A DNA stretch of 64,000 bases, from positions 653,181 through 717,180 of the forward strand of contig CAVYIE010000007.1 in the NCBI GenBank assembly GCA_963768615.1, written 5' to 3'. This DNA comes from Candidatus Eiseniibacteriota bacterium. Its GTDB lineage: Bacteria > Eisenbacteria > RBG-16-71-46 > JABDJR01. Each line of letters begins with the position of its first letter. Position 1 is the first letter of the stretch. The notes under the pieces were generated by a model that made no database searches, was not told the origin of the DNA, and saw only the letters and a list, made by a program, of their open reading frames with translations. A program made the position numbers and the translations under genes. Below are positions 11,434 through 61,645 of this stretch, piece after piece.

Positions 11434-13346
11434 TTATTGCCGGGACTGGATCTCGGCAAGAATTTTCTCGGTGAACCCGGCCCGGGGGCTGGCCCCCAGA
11501 TCCCCGTCCCCCCGGTGGCGGACGGACACCGTTCCCGCCTCCTGGTCCCGCCGGCCCACCACCAGCATGTAGGGAACCTTGAGCAGCTCCGCATCGCGGA
11601 TCTTGGCCCCTATCTTCTCGTTACGCTCGTCAACCTCCACCCGGACCCCGGCCTCGAAGAGCTCCCGCCGGACCTCCTCGGCATAGTCCAGGTTCTGGGG
11701 GCTGATGGGGAGCACCTTGACCTGGGTGGGGGCCAGCCAGAGGGGAAAGTCCCCGGCGTAGTGCTCGATCAGGACCCCGAAGAACCGCTCGATGGACCCC
11801 AGGAGCGCCCGATGGATCATGTACGGCCGGTGTTTCTCCCCGTCGTCCCCGATGTAGTACAGGTCGAAGCGCTCCGGCTCGTTGAAGTCGAACTGGATCG
11901 TGCTGCACTGCCAGGAACGGCCGATGGCATCCTGGATCTTGATGTCGATCTTGGGCCCGTAGAAGGCGCCCCCTCCCTGGTCCACCTGGAAGGGGAGCCC
12001 CACCGCCTCCAGGGCCTTCCGCAGGGCGGCCTCCGCCGCCTCCCAGTCGCCGGACTCCCCCACCGCCTTTTCGGGCCGGGTGGAGAGGTAGAGGTCGAAC
12101 TCCTTGAACCCGAACGCGCGAAGCATGTCCAGGCAGAAGCGGAGCACCCGCTCGATCTCCTCCTCCATCTGCTCCGGACGCACGAAGAGGTGGGCGTCGT
12201 CCTGGGTGAAGCCGCGGACCCGCATGAGGCCGTGCAGCACCCCCGGCATCTCGTAGCGATACACGGTGCCCAGCTCCGCCCAGCGCATGGGCAGATCCCG
12301 GTAGGAGTGCAGGCTGTTCTGGTACATCTTGATGTGGAACGGGCAATTCATCGGCTTCACGTAGAATTCCTGGTCGTCCATCTCCATGGGCGGATACATG
12401 AACTCCCGGTAGAAGCCGAGATGGCCGGAGGTCTCCCACAGGTTGGCCCGGCCCACGTGGGGCGAGTACACGATCTCGTATCCGTTCTTCAGGTGCTCGT
12501 CGCGCCAGAAGTCCTCGATCACCTTGCGGATCCGGCCGCCGCGGGGATGCCAGAACACCAGTCCCCCGCCCACGTCCTCGTGGAGGGAGAAGAGGTCCAT
12601 CTCCTTGCCGATCTTCCGGTGGTCGCGCTTCTTGGCCTCCTCCAGCCGGTGGAGGTAGTCGTCGAGCTGATCCTGGGAGTACCAGGAGGTGCCGTAGATG
12701 CGCTGCAGCCGGTCCCGGTCCGAGTCCCCGCGCCAGTAGGAGCCGGCCACCGAGAGCAGCTTGACCGCGTGGAGCCGGCCGGTGGAGGGCAGGTGGGGCC
12801 CGGTGCAGAGATCCACGAAGTCCCCGTGGCGGAAGAGGGTCACCTGGGGATCGGTGATCCCCTCCAGGATCTCCACCTTGAACTTGTCCCGGCGCTGCTT
12901 GAAGTACTCGACGGCCTCTTCCCGCTTCATCCAGCTCTTCTCGAAGGGGACGTCGCGGCGGGCGATCTCGCGCATCCGGTCCTCGATCCGGGCCAGGTCC
13001 TCCTCGGTGAAAGGGCGCTCGGTCTCGAAGTCGTAGAAGAACCCGTCCTCGATGGCCGGCCCGATGGCGTACTTGGTGCCGGGGAACAGCTCCTCCACCG
13101 CCGAGGCCATGATGTGGGCGGAGCTGTGACGGTAGAGGTCGCGGGCGGCGGGATCGTCGAAGCCGAGCAGGCGGACCTCGGCCCCGTCCCGGACCGGTTC
13201 GTAGAGTCCCTTGAGGACCCCGTCCTCCTGGACGGCGAGGATCTCCTCCCCCCCCCCGCCGCACGAACCAGGTCGGAGTAGACGGCGTTCTCCGCCACCT
13301 CAACCGGACGCCGGGCGCTGTCTTCGATCACCGTGACCTTGGGCAT
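11434..13346 (-). CDS. thrS: Threonine--tRNA ligase (apparent frameshift at a C10 homopolymer)
   Basis: ORF 11434..13110 encodes the catalytic and anticodon-binding domains (RHSSAHIMASAVEEL...HRDLPMRWAELGTVYRYE...). The TGS-domain N-terminus (MPKVTVIEDSARRPVEVAENAVYSDLVRAAGGG) lies in a different frame, in ORF 12927..13346. The two frames would join if the C10 run at 13250-13259 were C11 (giving ...AAGGGEEILAVQEDG...). Confidence 0.85.
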
Positions 13347-13533: not shown

Positions 13534-13610
13534 TGGTGGGCGATAGTGGACTTGAACCACTGACCTCTTGCATGTCAAGCAAGCACTCTAACCAACTGAG
13601 CTAATCGCCC
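13534..13610 (-). tRNA. tRNA-Val (anticodon GAC)
   Basis: Manual cloverleaf: acceptor GGGCGAT/ATCGCCC, D-arm GCTC-AGTTGGTTA-GAGT, anticodon arm CTTGC-TTGACAT-GCAAG, T-arm AGTGG-TTCAAGT-CCACT, encoded 3' CCA. Confidence 0.9.
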
Positions 13611-14074: not shown

Positions 14075-14151
14075 TGGTGCCCCCGGGGTGACTCGAACAC
14101 CCGGCACGCGGTTTAGGAAACCGCTGCTCTATCCGCCTGAGCTACGGGGGC
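14075..14151 (-). tRNA. tRNA-Arg (anticodon CCT)
   Basis: Manual cloverleaf: GCCCCCG-TA-GCTC-AGGCGGATA-GAGC-A-GCGGT-TTCCTAA-ACCGC-GTGCC-GGGTG-TTCGAGT-CACCC-CGGGGGC-A-CCA. Confidence 0.9.
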
Positions 14152-25503: not shown

Positions 25504-27046
25504 ATGTCCGATTCACGCCCCGCCGCCGAAACCACCCGCCGCGCCCCCCTGGAGATGGATCCCGAGACCTTCCGCGCCCTGGGCCGGGCCGCGGTGGACC
25601 GGATCGCCGACTTCCTGGCCGCCATGCCCCGGGGCCCGGTGACCCGGGGGGAGTCCCCCAGCGCGGTCCGCGAGGCGCTGGGCACCGGCGCCCTCCCCGC
25701 CGAGGGGACGCCGCCGGATGCGCTCCTGGAGGACACCGCGCGGCTTCTGTTCGAGCACTCGCTCTTCAACGGACACCCCCGCTTCCTGGGCTACATCACC
25801 GCCTCGGCGGCGCCGATCGGGGCCCTGGGGGACCTCCTGGCCGCGGCGGTGAACCCCAACGCCGGGGCCTCGATCCTCTCCCCCGCCGCCACCGAGATCG
25901 AAGCCCAGACCGTGCGCTGGATCGCCGAGCTGATCGGATTCCCCGCCCGGGGCGCGGGCGGGCTCATGGTGAGCGGGGGGAACCTGGCCAACATCGTCCC
26001 CTTCCTGGCCGCCCGCCGGGCCAAGGCGGACTGGGACCTGCGCTCCGAGGGGGTCGCCGCCGGCCCCCCCATGACCTGCTACGCCTCCGAGCGCACCCAC
26101 ACCTGGATCCAGAAGGCGGCCGACCTGGCCGGACTGGGCACCGAGGCGATACGGTGGATCCGGGTCGACCGCGACCACCGCATGGAGCCGGACGGCCCTG
26201 GCCGAGGCGGTGGCGCGGGACCGGGCGGCGGGGGCCCGTCCCTTCCTGGTGGTGGGGGCCGGGGGCACGGTGGAGGTGGGGGCGGTGGACCCCCTGCCCA
26301 CCCTGGCCGCCTTCTGCCGGGAGCAGGACCTGTGGTTCCACGTGGACGGGGCCTACGGCGCCATCGCGGCCGCGCTCCCCGAGGCCCCGGCCGACCTGAA
26401 GGGGCTGGCCGAGGCCGACTCGGTGGCGGTGGACCCCCACAAGTGGCTCTACGCCCCCCTGGAGGCGGGCTGCGTGCTCGTCCGCGATCCCGCCACCCTC
26501 CTGGACGCGTTCAGCTTCCACCCCGAGTACTACCGGATGGAGGTGCCCGGCCAGGAGCCGCGGCTGAACTACTTCGACTTCGGGCTCCAGAACTCGCGGG
26601 GGTTCCGGGCGCTCAAGGTGTGGCTGGCCCTGCGGCAGGTCGGCCGGGCCGGGTACCAGCGCATGCTCCGGGAGGACATCGAGCTGGCCGAACGCCTGTT
26701 CCGGAACGCCGCCGACCACCCCGAGCTGGAGGCGTTCACCCGGAACCTCTCCATCACCACCTTCCGCTTCGTGCCCCGGGATCTGCGCGGGCGTGCGGCG
26801 GAGCCGCCGGTCGCGGACTACCTGAACGGGCTCAACCAGGAGCTCCTGGACCGGCTCCAGGCCGGGGGCGAGGTGTTCGTCTCCAACGCGGTGCTGGAGG
26901 AGCGCTACGCCCTCCGCTCCTGCGTGGTCAACTTCCGCACCTCGGGAGGGGACATGGACGCCATTCCGGGGATCGTGGTCCGGATCGGGCGGGAGGTCGA
27001 CCGGGAGCGGCGTCCGGCCTCGCTGCGGGCGGACCGTTCCCGGTGA
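25504..27046 (+). CDS. Group II PLP-dependent decarboxylase (aromatic-L-amino-acid/glutamate decarboxylase family), with an apparent +1 frameshift near 26194
   Basis: The N-terminal half is in the 24889..27612 frame (MSDSRPAAETTRR...HPRFLGYITASAAPIGALGDLL...RVDRDHRMEPD). The C-terminal half is ORF 26210..27046 (HVDGAYGAIAAALPE...DSVAVDPHKWLYAPLEAGCVLVRD, with the PLP lysine in DPHKW). The frames join if one G is removed from gacGgcc at 26191-26196. Confidence 0.75.
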
Positions 27047-30000
27047 CCGGCCGCAGGCGGGCACCGTTCCGCCGCCGGCCGGTCAGGCCTGGGGGCTCCC
27101 GGCCGGGGTTCCAGGACGCCCGGATGAACTCGGCCGCGTCGGCCCCCTTGGGCACGAACGCCACCGCCCCCGCCTTCCGCATCCGGTCCGCCGTGGCCCT
27201 GGTTTCCTGGATGGACATGCCGATCACCCGGATCTCCGGGCGGCGCCGGAGGATCTCCCGGGTGGCCTCGGTCCCTCCCATGCGGGGCATGTTGACGTCC
27301 ATGAGCACCACGTCCGGACGCTCCCGCTCGACGACGGCGATCGCTTCCGTACCGTCCGCCGCCTCGGCGACCACCCGGATCCCGGGCTCCTCCTGCAGCA
27401 TCCTGCAGATTCCCTGCCGCACGACGGCATGGTCGTCCACGACCAGCACCCGGATCTGCCCCTCCGCCTGGGAGAGCATCGGCAGCGCGTCCGCCGGCGC
27501 CCGGCGGTCCGGATGGGTTGGCTCCGCGGCGACGTGGATCGGCAGCTCCAGGGAAACCCGGGTTCCCTTCCCCGGAGCCGAATCCACCTGCATGCGACCC
27601 CCCAGTCCGTAGATCCGCTCGCGGAGATGGTGGAGCCCGAACCCGGCGGGCGAAGCCTCGGGCTGGTTCGAGTCCGGATCGAAGCCCACCCCCCCGTCCG
27701 CCACCGTGATCCGGATCCAGCTCCCCACCGTCTCCACCCGCACCTCGGCCCGGTCGACCGAGGCGTGCTTCACCACGTTGAACAGGAGCTCGCGAACGCC
27801 CTGGAAGAGGAAGCTCGCGACCTCGTCCCGGGGGATGACCGGATTCTCGCCGGCGTGGAGCGCCACCTCCAACCGGAGCAGGCGGGTCATATCCCGGCCG
27901 AGCCAGCGGAGGGCGGGGACCAGTCCCTCCTCGAACAGCACCGGCGGATGCAGCTCCTGGGCCAGTTCCCGGGAGCAGGCCACCGCCCGGTCCATCATCT
28001 CCGCAGCCTCCCTCCGGGCATCCTCGACCGCCTGCGCCCCCTGCGACGGATCCAGGTCGCTCAACCGCATCTTGGCCCCCACCAGCCACTGCTGGAGATC
28101 GTCGTGGAGGATCGAGGCCAGCCGCCGGCGTTCGCGTTGTTCGGCGGAAGCGAGCTCGCGGGCCAATTTCCGGAGCCGGGAGGCCTGATTCTCGAGTTCC
28201 CGGGTGCGCTCCAACACCCGCCGCTCGAGATCGTCCCGGGTCTCGCGCAGATCGTCCTCCATCCGCCTCCGTTCGGAGATGTCGACGAAGGTGATGACCA
28301 CCCCGTCGATCCGGTCCTCGGCGGTCCGGTAGGGCAGGACCCGGGTCAGATACCATCCCCGTTCTCGCTCTGGATCTCGCGTTCCACCGGGACCAGCCGG
28401 TCGAGCACCGCCCGGGCGTCGTCCTGGAGATCCCGCGGACCCAGCCGGTGGGTAAGATCCCCGAGGGGCCGGCCCCGGTCGGCGACCCGGATGCTGAACA
28501 GGTCGGCCACCCGGGGGGTGAACCGCACGATGTGCAGGTTCCGGTCCAGGAACAGGGTGGCGATATCGATGGCGGTGAGGAGGTTCTGCAGGTCGGCGCT
28601 GACGCTGAGCCAGCTCCACCAGCCGGTGGCGGTTCTCCTGGTTGACCGTGCTCAACTCCTCGTTGACGCTCTGCAGCTCTTCCTTGCTGGTCTCCAGCTC
28701 CTCCAGGGTGGACCGGAGCTCCTCGTTGGTGCTCTGCAGCTCCTCGAAGGAGGTCTGCATCTCCTCCTGGGAGGTCTCGTAGTCCTCGATCGCCGTCCGC
28801 AGCCGCTCCCGGGTGTGCTCCAGCTCAAGCTCCAGCTCGCGGATGGTGGCGTCGGACTTGGGCCGGTCCGCTTCCGGAGTGGATTCCGGGAAGTTCGAAG
28901 CCTCCTCGAACATGACCAGGAACAGGTCGTCCTGATCCGGTTCCTCCACCCGCCGGGCCCGGACCGTCACCTTCCGGGCCTCTCCTCCGATCTCCATCCG
29001 CACCGGGTTCCCCTTCACCGTGCCCGGATTCTCCCGGGCGGCGTGGAGCACGGCACGGACCTCGGCCCGGAGAGGATTCCGGACCACCTTCAGGAGGCTG
29101 TTGGTCGGCTCCCCCCCGGGGAGATGCAGGTACCGCCCCGCCCCGCTCGAGGAGTGGAGGATCCGGAGATCATCGGTGACGAGCACGCTCGGCGGGGCAT
29201 AGCGCTCAACCAGCCGTTCGTGCAGGGCGCCGTGTTCCCGGGGCCGGGGGCGGGACCGGGCCGGACCCAGCTCCGGCTTCCCCGGCGGCCCGAACACGCT
29301 CCGGGCGGTCATGGGGAGGTGCAGCTCCCGCGCCGGCACGTTGCGCCGCCGGTACAACCGGTGCTCCTTGTTCTCGGGCAGGAACAGGTTGGATCGGTCC
29401 ACGGACTCGCTGGAACCCAGGAGGAGGAGGCCGTCGGGATTGAGCGCGTAGTGGAGAAGGGTGAGCACTTCGCCCTGGGCCTCACGTTCGAGGTAGATGA
29501 GCAGGTTCCGGCAGCTGACGAGGTCGATGTGGGCGAAGGGCGGATCCCGGAGCAGGTTGTGGGGGGCGAAGACGATCGCCTCCCGGAGGTTCTTCCGGAC
29601 CCGGTAGGTGCTGTCCTCCTTGGCGAAGAACCGGCGCAGCCGTTCGGGGCCCACGCTCTCCCGGATCGACTCCGGATAGACGCCCTCCCGGGCCTTGCGG
29701 AGGGAGAGATCGTGCAGATCGCTGGCGAAGATCTGGATCCGGGGAGAGTCGTTCCTCCGGGTCGCCGCTTCCAGGAGAACCATGGCCAGGGAGTAGGCCT
29801 CCTCCCCGGTCGCACAGCCGATGGACCAGATCCGGATGTGGTCCTCCGACCCCTTGCCCTGGAAGAGGCGGGGGAGGACGTCCTGCTCGAGGAACTCGTA
29901 GGTGGAGGGATCCCGGAAGAACTGGGTCACGGTGATCAGGAGGTCGTCGGCCAGATTCCCGGCCTCCTCCCGGTGCTCGCGGACGATCTCGAGGTAGGCG

Positions 30001-30805
30001 CCGAAATCCTCCACGTGGTGGATCTGCATCCGGCGCCGGATCCGGCGCATGAGGGTCGAGCGCTTGTAGTCGCTGAAGTCGCGCCCGGTCACCAGCCTGA
30101 TCTGGGCGAAGATCGCGGAAAGGAGGCGCTCCGGGGCCTCCTGTTCCGCCTCCCTCCGTTCCCGGACGGGGACCCGGGGCTCGGTACCCGCGAACTTCAC
30201 GATCGGGTCCACCATCTCCTCGAGCCGCAGCACCAGGTCCACCGCCCCTCCGGCGATGGCGCTGCGGGGCATCCCGTCGTACTCCGCCTCCTCCGGATCC
30301 TGGACGATGGCGAGCCCCCCTGCTCCCGGATCTCCCGGAGGCCCAGGGTGCCGTCCGAGCCGGAGCCCGTGAGAACCACCCCGATCGACCGTCCGTCGTG
30401 GGACGCGGCCAGGGTGCGGAAGAAATGGTCGATGGTCGCCCGCTCGGTGCGTTTCTCCTCCAGGGCCGACAGCCGCAGGTGGGTGTCGATGGCGTTGAGG
30501 TTGGCTCCGGGAGGGATGACGTACACCCGGTCCGGTTCCAGGAGCCGGGTGTCGCTGACCTGCTCCACCGGCATCGGACAACCCGGTTGGAGGAGATCGG
30601 CCAGATGGCTCTCGTGCTCCGGAGAGAGATGGACCACGATCACGTAGGCCAGCCCGGAGTCCGGCGGCAGGCTTCCCAGGAACCGAGTGAGGGCCTTGAG
30701 CCCTCCGGCCGACGCCCCGATCCCCACCACGGACACGGCCGGCTTGCGGTCCTTCTCCTTCGGCGGCCCTTTCCGGGGGCTTTTCGGGCCCTTCGACCCA
30801 CCCAT
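26928..30805 (-). pseudogene. CheB methylesterase - CheR methyltransferase - coiled coil - PAS - HisKA_3/HATPase - receiver fusion protein with at least three frame disruptions (a pseudogene or sequencing errors)
   Basis: CheB domain in ORF 30197..30853 (VVGIGASAGGLKALTRFLGSL...VLTGSGSDGTLG). The frame changes at the C6 run at 30315-30320. CheR follows (FFRDPSTYEFL...IWSIGCATGEEAYSLAM), then a coiled coil (EELQSTNEELRSTLEELETSKEELQSVNEEL). The PAS N-half lies in another frame (ORF 28346..28528), with shifts near 28600 and at the C4 run 28357-28360. Next come the HK (LHDDLQQWLVGAKMRL, HATPase) and REC (IRVLVVDDH...VLMDVNMP) domains. Start ATG 30805 is preceded by GAGGAGG. Confidence 0.7.
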
Positions 30806-30883
30806 GGCACCTCCTCGTTCCCGGCGCGGGGAAAATTCCCCCCCCCCGGACAATTTGAGATTACCACCGATACCGGAATCGGG

Positions 30884-31381
30884 TCACGGGGCCGGCCGGC
30901 CCCGGTAGGTCTCGGTGTCCTCGCCCCTCCAGGCCAGGATGGCCTGCCGGGCGGCGGCCACCCTCCAGCTTCCGTCCACGCTCCGCGCCATCCGGTACCG
31001 GGTCCAGACCCCGGCCACGGCGTCGTCCGGCAGCCGGTCCATGATCACGGTCACGGTGGAGCTGTCCGGGGACTCGACCCGGTTGTCCGCGCGGTACAGG
31101 CGGACCCGCGGCGCCTCCGCGGTGCGGGAGATCCGCAACGCGACCTCCCCCGGATCGCCGACCCAGGCCTCGCCGCGCCGCGCCGCCGCCCCGATCTCCA
31201 GATTGAAGGGGGCGGGCTCGACCGGACTCGAGGAGATCATCATCGGCGTGTCGGCGAAATCGGCCGGCACCGCCGACACCGGGACCGGCGCTTCCGGCAC
31301 CCGAACCTCCGGCTTGCTACCGGCACAACCCATCGCGGCCGGGATCAGGGCGGCGAGCATGCATGCGATCGAGGTCTTCAT
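30884..31381 (-). CDS. Hypothetical lipoprotein
   Basis: ATG at 31381 with an AGGAGG RBS. Signal peptide plus lipobox MKTSIACMLAALIPAAMGCAG. 165 aa, no recognised family. The upstream part of ORF 30884..32545 is an artefact. Confidence 0.6.
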   Translation of the reverse strand: MKTSIACMLAALIPAAMGCAGSKPEVRVPEAPVPVSAVPADFADTPMMISSSPVEPAPFNLEIGAAARRGEAWVGDPGEVALRISRTAEAPRVRLYRADNRVESPDSSTVTVIMDRLPDDAVAGVWTRYRMARSVDGSWRVAAARQAILAWRGEDTETYRGRPAP

Positions 31382-34631: not shown

Positions 34632-34708
<77 letters not shown>

Positions 34709-37591: not shown

Positions 37592-37630
37592 AAAAAAAAG
37601 AGCCCGCCGGTCCGGGGCGGTCCCGCGGGC
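37592..37630 (-). terminator. Putative terminator downstream of tRNA-Pro(GGG)
   Basis: Minus strand: gcccg-(18-nt loop)-cgggc followed by UC+U8 (plus-strand A8 at 37592-37599). Confidence 0.3.
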
Positions 37631-37684: not shown

Positions 37685-37761
37685 TGGTCGGGGCGACTGG
37701 ATTTGAACCAGCGACCACTTGCACCCCAAGCAAGTGCGCTACCAGGCTGCGCCACGCCCCG
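37685..37761 (-). tRNA. tRNA-Pro (anticodon GGG)
   Basis: Manual cloverleaf: CGGGGCG-TG-GCGC-AGCCTGGTA-GCGC-A-CTTGC-TTGGGGT-GCAAG-TGGTC-GCTGG-TTCAAAT-CCAGT-CGCCCCG-A-CCA. Confidence 0.9.
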
Positions 37762-42760: not shown

Positions 42761-42836
42761 TGGAGCGGGCGACCGGGTTCGAACCGGCGACATTCAGCTT
42801 GGGAAGCTGACACTCTACCAACTGAGTTACGCCCGC
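42761..42836 (-). tRNA. tRNA-Gly (anticodon CCC)
   Basis: Manual cloverleaf: GCGGGCG-TA-ACTC-AGTTGGTA-GAGT-G-TCAGC-TTCCCAA-GCTGA-ATGTC-GCCGG-TTCGAAC-CCGGT-CGCCCGC-T-CCA. Confidence 0.9.
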
Positions 42837-56719: not shown

Positions 56720-57423
56720 GCGCCATCCCCTACCGCGCGGTCGGCCTCGGCCTCGACGGCGTTCAGGGCCGCCTCCAGGCGCTTCCGCCACGGTTCCAGG
56801 TCGGAGGCCGGCGGCACCTCGATCGGGTCCCCGTAGACCAGGGCCCCCCGCGCCCCGGGCCGGGGCACCTGGAACCGGTCCCAGGAGCCGAAGGTCCAGG
56901 CCGGCCGGGCGGCCGCGCCCAGGGGCACCAGCGGCCGGCCGGTGCGCGCGGCCAGGAGCACCGCCCCCATCTGGGCCACGTGGCGGGGCCCCCGGGGACC
57001 ATCGGGGGTGAGGGCGGCCGAGACCCCCTCGGTGAGGAGCGCTTCCAGGGCCACCAGGCCCTCCCGCCCTCCCCGGCTGGAGGAGCCTCGCACCGCCCGG
57101 TAGCCCATCCGCTCGGCGGCTCGGGCGATGATCTCGCCGTCCTCGGAGAGGCTGACCAGGACCGCGGTGCCGGGCCGGCCGGCCCGGGCTGCGGCCAGCC
57201 AGAAGCGGCCATGCCAGAAGGCGTAAATCACAGCTCCGCTTTTTTTTAACGCGGCTTCTTCACGTTCACGGTGAAGGTATCGGACCCGGGTCAGCCGGCC
57301 CGAGAGCCGGAGCAGGGTGGCTCCCGCCGCCGCCCCCGCCCGGCGCAGGAGCTTCCGGCCCGGGCGCGGGCGGGCACGGGACCCGGATTCGCGAGCGGAG
57401 GCCGGAGCCGGGGCGGGGCTCAC
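56716..57423 (-). CDS. DUF374 lysophospholipid-acyltransferase-like protein (lipid A/Kdo cluster associated)
   Basis: GTG at 57423 ...LLRRAGAAAGATLLRLSGRLTRVRYLHREREEAALKKSGAVIYAFWHGRFWLAAARAG...ALTPDGPRGPRH. The upstream part of ORF 56716..57819 is an artefact. Confidence 0.7.
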   Translation of the reverse strand: MSPAPAPASARESGSRARPRPGRKLLRRAGAAAGATLLRLSGRLTRVRYLHREREEAALKKSGAVIYAFWHGRFWLAAARAGRPGTAVLVSLSEDGEIIARAAERMGYRAVRGSSSRGGREGLVALEALLTEGVSAALTPDGPRGPRHVAQMGAVLLAARTGRPLVPLGAAARPAWTFGSWDRFQVPRPGARGALVYGDPIEVPPASDLEPWRKRLEAALNAVEAEADRAVGDGA

Positions 57424-60322: not shown

Positions 60323-61645
60323 TCAGCGGTCCACGACGGTGGAGAGCAGCTCCGCCTCGGCCACCAGGTGGCCGTCCACGTAGGCCTTTCCGGACATCTT
60401 GCAGATCCGGCCCTTGAGTTTGCGCATTTCCAGCTCGAAGCGGAGCTGGTCGCCGGGGCGGACGGGGCGCCGGAACTTGGCCCCGTCGATGCCCATGAAG
60501 TAGACCAGCTTCTCGCGGGGCCGTTCCACCTTGTTGAGGAGGAGCACGCCCCCGGTCTGGGCCATGGCCTCGATGATCAGCACCGCGGGCATGATCGGGT
60601 GGCCGGGGAAATGGCCCATGAAGAAGGGTTCGTTCAGGGTGACGTTCTTGATCCCCACCACCCGGTCGTCGGTGAGTTCCAGGATCCGGTCCACCAGGAG
60701 CAGCGGATAGCGGTGGGGCATGATCTGGGAGATGGCCTCCACGTCCCAGAAGTGATCCTTGCCGTCGGGAAGCGGCGGCAGGTCGAAGCCGGTGGCCCGG
60801 CGCTCCGCCTCGGCCAGCGACTTCACGAACTCCACGTGGCTCTCGTGGCCCGAGCGCCAGGCCATCACGTGCCCCCGGAGGGGACGGCCGAGCAGGGTCA
60901 GGTCACCGAGAAGATCCAGCACCTTGTGGCGCACGAACTCGTCCCGCCAGCGGAGCCCCTCGGTGTTGGCCACCCCGTCGTCGTTGACCACCACCGCGTT
61001 GTCCAGGGTGCCCCCGCGGATCATCCCCGCCTGGCGGAGGAGCTCCACGTCGCGCCGGAGCACGAAAGTCCGGGCGGGAGCGATCTCGGACACGAAGGTC
61101 TCGGGGACGATCTCGAAGGTGGCGTACTGGGTGCCGATGGTGGCGTTGTCGTACTGGATGGTGAAGGAGACGCGGAGCCCGTCGTGGGGAAGGCCCAGGA
61201 GCTCCGCGCCCCGGTGCTGGAATCTCACCGGGTGGGGGATCTCGAAGTACCGCCGCTCGGCCTCCTGGGAGACCACCCCCGCGTCCCGGAACATCTCCAC
61301 GTAGAGGGCGGCGCTGCCGTCCCCCGGCTCCCCGGGCTCGCGGGCGTCGAGCTCGATCCGCAGGTTGTCGAGCCCCACCCCGGTCACCGCGGCCAGGAGG
61401 TGCTCCACGGTGTGGACCTCGGCCGATCCCGAGCGGAGGATGGTGCGGCGACCCTGTTCGGCGTCGTACACCGCGTTCCCCGGGGCCACCCGGACCTCCG
61501 GCTGGCCGGGAAGGTCGGTGCGCACGAAGCTGATCCCGCTTCCCGGAGGGGCGGGGAGGAAGGTGACCCGGCAGGATTCCCCGGTGTGGAGCCCGACCCC
61601 CTCGTAGGAGATCTCGCCGCCGAGGGTGGTCTGTCGGTCGTTCAC
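60323..61645 (-). CDS. lpxC/fabZ: Bifunctional UDP-3-O-acyl-GlcNAc deacetylase / (3R)-hydroxyacyl-ACP dehydratase (LpxC-FabZ fusion)
   Basis: 440 aa. The N-terminal 280 aa is LpxC (...[18 protein letters not shown]...[14 protein letters not shown]...). The C-terminal 150 aa is FabZ (...[15 protein letters not shown]...[20 protein letters not shown]). Confidence 0.9.

Follow-up and report, generated by a model that had tools for sequence, protein, structure and literature searches.

A CheB/CheR fusion sensor kinase gene with three single-base frame breaks in a Candidatus Eiseniibacteriota assembly

The kinase gene and its predicted product

We analysed a stretch of 64,000 nucleotides from contig CAVYIE010000007.1 of the Candidatus Eiseniibacteriota assembly GCA_963768615.1 (hereafter the window), which has a composition of 72.3% G+C, and within it a minus-strand gene that runs from an ATG at 30805 to ~27050, its final domain stopping at 27123. 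As read from its sequence, this locus holds one gene, whose product is an orphan hybrid sensor kinase belonging to a widespread family of CheB/CheR fusion proteins. The reading frame is broken at three sites, labelled FS1 to FS3, and three single-base edits give a repaired product of 1292 aa. On its 5' side a spacer of 77 nt separates the kinase ATG from a co-directional gene for a 165-aa lipoprotein (stop at 30884), and on its 3' side the kinase gene is convergent with a gene for a pyridoxal phosphate (PLP)-dependent decarboxylase. The features of the locus, in the direction of the gene, are as follows.

30838..30847, minus strand: G10 tract in the 77-nt spacer, 32 nt upstream of the ATG
30816-30810, minus strand: ribosome-binding site GAGGAGG (GGAGG core 30814-30810), with the start codon ATG at 30805-30803
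30207..30727, minus strand: CheB methylesterase domain (CheB_methylest), residues 27-200, model positions 1-172 of 174, E 1.7e-54
30315-30320, minus strand: FS1, at a C6 run; one added base is needed (coding-strand G6 to G7)
29973-30122, minus strand: CheR_N domain, E 1.5e-14
29391-29930, minus strand: CheR S-adenosylmethionine (SAM)-binding methyltransferase domain, E 3.5e-52
28574..28847, minus strand: coiled coil in which six Glu-Glu pairs recur at an exact 7-residue spacing
28603-28604, minus strand: FS2, a surplus C or G following the Gln734 codon, in CAG[C/G]GTCAGC; no homopolymer
28278..28591, minus strand: PAS_10 domain, residues 739-843, model positions 1-105 of 106, E 2.6e-27, in a frame that differs from that of the flanking open reading frame (ORF)
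28357-28360, minus strand: FS3, at a C4 run; one added base is needed in or beside the coding-strand G4 run
27936-28133, minus strand: HisKA_3 domain with the H-box HDDLQQ, a weak match (25.6 bits against a cut-off of 24, E 1.9e-05)
27537-27818, minus strand: HATPase_c domain with N, G1 and G2 boxes, 50.4 bits, E 3.5e-13
27123..27449, minus strand: C-terminal NarL-type receiver domain (Response_reg), 92.6 bits, E 2.2e-26
26928..27122, minus strand: Pro/Arg/Gly-rich C-terminal tail, with G+C at the third codon position (GC3) of 0.93 until ~27051 and then 0.60 to a stop at 26928

The Pfam domain search was run on the 1292-aa protein joined from its frames by single-base edits, and it confirmed the succession of CheB, CheR, coiled coil, PAS, HisKA_3/HATPase and receiver that a first-pass annotation had read from the letters of the window. 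The CheB_methylest and PAS_10 models are matched end to end over the repaired sites, and the repaired protein carries each of the parts expected of such a fusion, namely CheB, CheR_N/CheR, a Glu-Glu (EE) coiled coil with PAS_10, and a hybrid HisKA_3 kinase. The receiver is followed by no output domain. In an alignment with homologues, the CheB triad positions S32, H59 and D151 fall in invariant columns, and the CheR motifs are kept as GCATGEEAYSL and CRNLLIYL (GxGCxTGEE and CRNxLIY in the family). The kinase residues H901, N1010 and D1037/G1039/G1041 are likewise conserved, as are D1124, D1125, D1170, S1198 and K1220 of the receiver, such that the H-box, the N/G1/G2 boxes, the CheB triad, the CheR motifs and the receiver residues all occupy invariant or near-invariant columns.

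Between CheR and the coiled coil lies a further well conserved region of ~130-170 aa (residues ~520-650, window ~28860-29250), with the consensus YGxLHExxVERYAPPSxLV...GGEPTNNxFKLVREPLRxELRAALHAA. A Pfam search of this region matched no family; the region may represent a second PAS-like module in these proteins, so far unrecognised.

Essentially all of the other genes of the window (~55) were scanned with Pfam, and tRNA scans were made alongside. These scans found no cheA, cheW, cheY or methyl-accepting chemotaxis protein (MCP) gene among the ~55 genes, and the kinase is therefore an orphan within 64 kb, in agreement with the earlier remark that the architecture is independent of a canonical che operon.

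The three breaks were located in several ways. Three-frame translation gives one coherent protein over two frames: the first frame runs from the ATG at 30805 to '...GLREIREQGG'; the second, beginning 'LAIVQDPEEAEYDGMPRSA...', continues via CheR and the coiled coil to '...NQENRHRLVELAQ'; after FS2 the first frame resumes as '...SADLQNLLTAIDIATLFLD...EREIQSENG'; and after FS3 the protein reads 'WYLTRVLPYRT...' to the gene end. Repair of FS1 yields REQGGLAIVQDPEEAEYDGMPRSA, to be compared with the family consensus RxIKExGGLTIVQDPxEAEYDGMPRSA; removal of a base at FS2 yields ELAQVSADLQNLL, which is collinear with the consensus ELSQLTxDLQNLL; and repair of FS3 yields SENGGWYLTRVLPYR, where the consensus is SxxGRWYLxRxLPYR. 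A homology-free segmentation of the whole window into frames, by codon-position GC (GC3), puts its switch points at 30315/6, 28610/1 and 28355/6, the same three breaks, and GC3 periodicity tracks the repaired frames. When the repaired protein is aligned with ten homologues (described below), all three repaired junctions are free of gaps. Translation, segmentation and alignment hence all bear out the three single-nucleotide-repairable breaks of the first-pass annotation, of which the one given as 'near 28600' is now placed at 28603-28604. All of the lesions are 1-nt indels, with neither an in-frame stop nor a larger deletion.

As written, the mis-framed PAS segment between FS2 and FS3 does not interrupt a 1217-aa ORF. 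We attach no special meaning to this ORF, since off-frame stretches of that size commonly lack stops here: among the genes of the window, at 72% GC, 87% of 85-codon off-frame windows at that offset are free of stops.

The 3' end of the gene is less regular. The ORF tail overlaps the 3' end of the decarboxylase gene (stop at 27046) by ~118 nt. In the alignment, homologues end 15-25 residues past the receiver, with one that has a long tail. The tail of the window's kinase may be natural or may reflect one further small lesion, the stop being perhaps lost or shifted. A fourth frameshift at this end was considered and left as a candidate only, as GC3 keeps the frame to ~27051.

Family relationships and a proposed adaptation circuit

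At least 8000 proteins of a 5.8-billion-protein collection match the kinase at E<=1e-30, and many of them are named 'two-component system, chemotaxis family, CheB/CheR fusion protein', a JGI/IMG family name that we take to correspond to KEGG orthologue K13924. Ten full-architecture relatives (P0003, P0004, P0008-P0011, P0015, P0016, P0025 and P0057) have the same domain order as the window's kinase; they are collinear with it over 91-96% of its length at 50-55% identity and share its catalytic residues. Elsewhere in the family many members have extra PAS/GAF domains or lack the receiver. What sets the window's kinase apart is the three single-base frame breaks in the deposited sequence and the long low-complexity C-terminal tail. 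Its nearest relatives are only 50-63% identical, and it is therefore a new lineage-specific member. Clustered at 90% identity, the organism's proteins remain singletons, and in species-representative genomes the closest relative of the kinase is only ~50-60% identical.

The separate parts are familiar from well-studied systems. The catalytic domains are homologous to those of CheB (PDB 1a2o, 1chd, 6ymz) and CheR (PDB 1af7, 1bc5, 5ftw), with E values of 6.5e-33 to 1e-27, and have the Ser-His-Asp triad and the SAM-binding motifs in common with these canonical adaptation enzymes. Unlike the latter, the window's kinase joins CheB and CheR in one chain; its CheB domain has no N-terminal receiver, the sole receiver being at the far C terminus behind the kinase; and the presumed substrate would be a coiled coil within the same chain, where the canonical enzymes act on a transmembrane chemoreceptor. 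With hybrids of the NarX/DesK class (HisKA_3) and with NarL-type receivers (3cz5; VraS, 4gt8) it shares the H-box, the N/G1/G2 boxes and the D-D-D-S-K residues of the receiver, but here the input is made up of CheB/CheR enzymes and PAS_10 instead of a membrane sensor, and the receiver has no helix-turn-helix output. A PDB sequence search returned the separate domains only (CheB, CheR and NarL-type receivers) and no solved fusion.

A survey of Azospirillum (PMC4618731) lists CheB-methylesterase and CheR-type 'MeTRC' as input domains of classic and hybrid histidine kinases. The architecture has therefore been on record since 2015 at the latest, in a catalogue entry that concerns other phyla and holds no functional data, and a literature search for CheB/CheR fusions with a biochemical characterisation yielded nothing beyond a domain catalogue. 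The first-pass annotation had presented the architecture as notable, which is overstated, as it is among the commonest annotated multidomain sensor types. By sequence comparison, then, the architecture is known and common, and the window's copy is a moderately divergent new member.

The coiled coil is the part of the protein that points to how such a fusion might work. Its Glu-Glu pairs lie at residues 681/688/695/702/709/716 of the repaired protein, with Ser/Thr-rich positions two residues past each pair. The alignment of 11 sequences shows no variation at five of the pairs, and at least five heptad-spaced EE pairs are found in 119 of the 120 best homologues. In chemoreceptors, the methylation sites are Glu/Gln pairs 7 residues apart on the methylation helix, with the consensus Glu-Glu-X-X-Ala-Ser/Thr. 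The EExx[S/T][S/T] heptads of the window's kinase resemble the site consensus and the 7-residue spacing of MCP methylation helices such as those of Tar and Tsr, and it is from this resemblance that we infer methylation in cis. The likeness does not extend to detectable sequence homology, as the repaired protein gives no match to the Pfam MCPsignal model at E<=0.001; unlike MCPs, the kinase has neither a transmembrane or HAMP region nor a CheW/CheA-binding tip.

The most economical reading is that the fused CheR and CheB would act on the EE-heptad helix as their substrate. In the circuit that we propose, the PAS/coiled-coil module would set the activity of the kinase, and the CheR and CheB domains would methylate and demethylate glutamates of the EE-heptad helix, either their own or those of a dimer partner, the helix mimicking the heptad-spaced methylation sites of chemoreceptors. 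The receiver would accept the phosphoryl group, for relay or feedback, and the whole would equip the kinase with an adaptation or memory circuit of its own.

Origin of the frame breaks

For the locus as a whole we favour the explanation, to which we give a probability of roughly 0.65, that this is an ordinary CheB/CheR fusion kinase, with adaptation in cis proposed for it, and that its breaks are consensus errors; for the kinase interruptions taken by themselves as assembly artefacts our estimate is about 0.65-0.7. The three breaks in the kinase, together with one in the decarboxylase gene and one in thrS, would be single-base consensus errors of the deposited assembly, whose 1.94-Mb contig was presumably assembled from long reads, and the real kinase gene would most probably be intact. 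Among the possibilities raised in the first-pass annotation, assembly error is thus the best supported, by an independent sequence that reads through FS1, by a frameshift in thrS and by the lack of decay at the level of substitutions.

The independent sequence is L001, a contig of 4028 bp from the Logan assembly of run ERR11594398, which was reached by exact-protein look-up of the neighbouring AlkZ-like gene. L001 aligns with window positions 32743-28717 at 99.93% identity, the differences being two substitutions and a single gap. This gap, its sole indel relative to the window, is at FS1, where L001 has G7 against the window's G6 and the frame is open; its gene call is a continuous product of 696 aa that runs off the contig end. 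Within the kinase gene the two sequences differ over 2.1 kb by this one indel and by no substitution. Both substitutions (31237 and 30912) are nonsynonymous, Ile/Leu and Glu/Gly, and both are in the putative lipoprotein gene (30884-31381, minus strand) directly upstream of the kinase, less than 1 kb from FS1. They suggest strain-level variation at that spot.

The other breaks were sought by several routes. An exact 30-mer from the PAS_10 region had 0 matches in JGI metagenome contigs, and protein-guided scans of species-representative genomes and metagenomes for FS2 and FS3 gave a best identity of ~50-60%. When the C-terminal 605 aa were used as query, no near-identical homologue was returned, a weak result as the search omits the window's own products that are present in the collection; the same weak search, with the repaired decarboxylase as query, reached no more than 67% identity. 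Four repaired variants of the decarboxylase were looked up as exact sequences in the protein collection and none was present, and exact-protein contig look-ups of further neighbouring genes and of the CheB fragment found no contig on record.

Two further genes of the window are interrupted in a similar way.

25504..27046, plus strand: PLP-dependent decarboxylase gene, with one extra base at 26194-26198, in 'GACGGCCCTGG'
13248..13257, minus strand: second G10 tract, inside thrS (ATG 13346, stop 11434), which frameshifts the gene as written

In the decarboxylase, the match to Pyridoxal_deC moves to the next frame part-way along, covering model positions 11-182 before the shift and 185-360 after it. 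The repaired protein spans model positions 11-360 unbroken and aligns over 96-100% with homologues of ~500 aa. The source assembly calls a 278-aa C-terminal fragment of the decarboxylase as a separate gene and also a 202-aa CheB fragment (ATG 30805 to a stop at 30197), both on the deposited contig of 1,938,554 bp. As for thrS, the ORF with the catalytic domains has no start codon before 13110 as written, and the evident start, the ATG at 13346 just downstream of a tRNA-Val gene, is in another frame. A tract of G11 (or G8) gives a 637-aa threonyl-tRNA synthetase (ThrRS), whose residues 9-636 correspond to residues 8-635 of E. coli ThrRS (1qf6) with no gap at the tract. The Pfam TGS model gave no score on the repaired N terminus, and collinearity with the E. 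coli enzyme from residue 8 was used in place of that match. Because a frameshift is unexpected in an essential aminoacyl-tRNA synthetase, the assembly contains at least one homopolymer-length error, and the G10 of thrS is almost certainly such an error of the deposited assembly.

Five frameshifts are thus detectable in the window, four of them within 4.1 kb (26194-30320) in two adjacent non-essential genes. According to the GC3 segmentation the other same-strand frame switches coincide with stop codons, and ~50 other genes read cleanly with full-length domain matches, including through G7/G8 runs. We rejected a uniform model of homopolymer error, under which the correct G7/G8 runs elsewhere and the two breaks outside homopolymers would be unaccounted for. 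The clustering is likeliest to stem from a local drop in consensus quality, via low coverage or mixed strains.

The first-pass annotation had also raised decay of the gene, and here the state of the repaired protein is informative. It agrees with 246 of the 257 columns (95.7%) at which the ten intact homologues show no variation, where the leave-one-out range for these homologues themselves is 90-98%. Relaxed constraint, sought as substitutions at conserved positions, in-frame stops and lost codon bias, was not seen, and a break fixed in the lineage is not what is found at FS1, as L001 does not have it. Since the profile consists entirely of indels and includes no substitution, we read it as consensus error and not as neutral decay.

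The main alternative, which we consider unlikely, is that the breaks are real, the CheB/CheR kinase and the PLP decarboxylase being adjacent, dispensable genes recently inactivated by 1-nt indels in the sequenced strain. Decay would then be at its very start, with the sister strain represented by L001 still intact at the first site at least. Such a view accounts for four frameshifts falling in a pair of neighbouring non-essential genes and none in ~50 clean genes of mostly housekeeping function, a pattern that purifying selection would give, and for FS2 and the decarboxylase break not being in homopolymers; the two single-nucleotide polymorphisms (SNPs) of L001 less than 1 kb from FS1 show besides that strain differences exist there. 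It is at odds with the absence of substitution decay, the catalytic motifs being complete and the invariant columns and frames preserved as described, and with the comparison to L001, where four neutral indels should have brought many substitutions in place of the zero SNPs and one indel seen over 2.1 kb. Other dispensable genes of the window (glycosyltransferases and hypothetical proteins) have no frameshifts, and the same assembly miscalls an indel in the essential thrS. Were the breaks real, the natural population would hold intact (G7) and multiply frameshifted alleles of the kinase, the decarboxylase included, around a 4-kb indel hotspot produced by a local mutational process. This is a picture that we regard as doubtful; if true, it would make the locus a strain-variable 'adaptation module' in the course of being switched off or lost.

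Slippage at the G10 tract was the other proposal of the first-pass annotation, which correctly reported the tract at 30838-30847 but put it ~35 nt upstream of the ATG instead of the 32 nt found. The locus would in that case be a phase-variable contingency locus, with slippage at G10 altering the level of expression and slippage at the coding G6/G7 turning the gene ON or OFF. The proximity of the tract to the start and the G6/G7 length difference at FS1 between two near-identical sequences are in its favour. The tract lengths, compared in two sequences only, are G10 in both the window and L001 and G6 against G7 for the coding tract. G10/C10 runs are rarer than chance for the composition of the window, which has 2 where dinucleotide-preserving shuffles have a mean of 10.2, and 99 of 100 shuffles contain at least 2. 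No sigma-70-like promoter hexamers flank the tract in 30700-31000, in a scan limited to the sigma-70 type, and the kinase gene may be co-transcribed with the upstream lipoprotein gene, because the spacer is short and the two genes are co-directional. Nor can any single tract restore the frame, because there are three independent breaks, one of which, FS2, is outside any repeat. The G4 and G6 runs are short for slippage-driven switching, and the other G10 tract is in thrS, which cannot be phase-variable. We therefore find phase variation very unlikely and did not retain it; in a genome of 72% GC such a tract is commonplace, and it is no demonstrated switch.

Programmed ribosomal frameshifting would produce the full-length protein from the sequence as written, and the one point in its favour is that each break is a single-base shift. 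It would call for three shifts in one gene, in both directions and with no common slippery motif, whereas the homologues encode the protein in one frame and L001 reads straight through FS1. We give this possibility almost no credence.

Returning to consensus error as the preferred explanation, several points weigh against it. Four of the five frameshifts are clustered, and random homopolymer error predicts no such clustering; two of these four, FS2 and the decarboxylase break, occur away from any homopolymer. Of the kinase and decarboxylase breaks, the independent sequence spans FS1 only, and because of the two nonsynonymous SNPs L001 may come from another strain, in which case the G6/G7 difference would perhaps be a genuine polymorphism. 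The long-read origin of the source assembly is itself presumed, from the length of its contig. As regards the proposed circuit, we found no biochemically characterised member of the family, and the mechanism is accordingly put forward as conjecture.

Genomic surroundings and significance

The remainder of the window holds xseA, ymdB and a thrS-infC-rpmI-rplT-pheS-pheT block; several glycosyltransferase genes and genes for GDP-mannose dehydratase/epimerase; genes for an AlkZ-like glycosylase, a phosphoribosyltransferase and a sigma-70 factor; and pcm, surE, gpsA, plsY, der, miaA, mutL, lon and a nadB-like gene. A lipid-A cluster at 54.4-63.5 kb comprises lpxK, kdtA, lpxB, lpxA, lpxC-fabZ, lpxD and skp, and because of this cluster the organism is taken to be diderm. 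Five tRNA genes were found, which explain most of the stretches termed non-coding by the frame segmentation. These features, with the fused gene of the lipid-A cluster, are listed here.

13534-13610, minus strand: tRNA Val-GAC
14075-14151, minus strand: tRNA Arg-CCT
34632-34708, minus strand: tRNA Pro-CGG
37685-37761, minus strand: tRNA Pro-GGG
42761-42836, minus strand: tRNA Gly-CCC
60326-61645, minus strand: LpxC-FabZ (FabA-like) fusion in a single ORF

The only long A/T homopolymers of the window are an A8 run at 37592-37599 and a T8 run at 57240-57247, one of which closely precedes a candidate GTG start codon at 57231.

As a discovery the locus has small value, since its architecture has been catalogued thousands of times and its odd features fit assembly error and composition. 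For the lineage, a local low-quality stretch at 26.2-30.3 kb together with the thrS miscall in the deposited contig would inflate pseudogene counts. The very large family of CheB/CheR-fusion kinases, with its invariant array of Glu-Glu heptads, appears to be uncharacterised experimentally. By analogy with chemoreceptors, the invariant EE-heptad helix of this family may be a methylation substrate in cis and, if this is true, the EE-heptad proteins would be sensory-adaptation circuits contained in one polypeptide.

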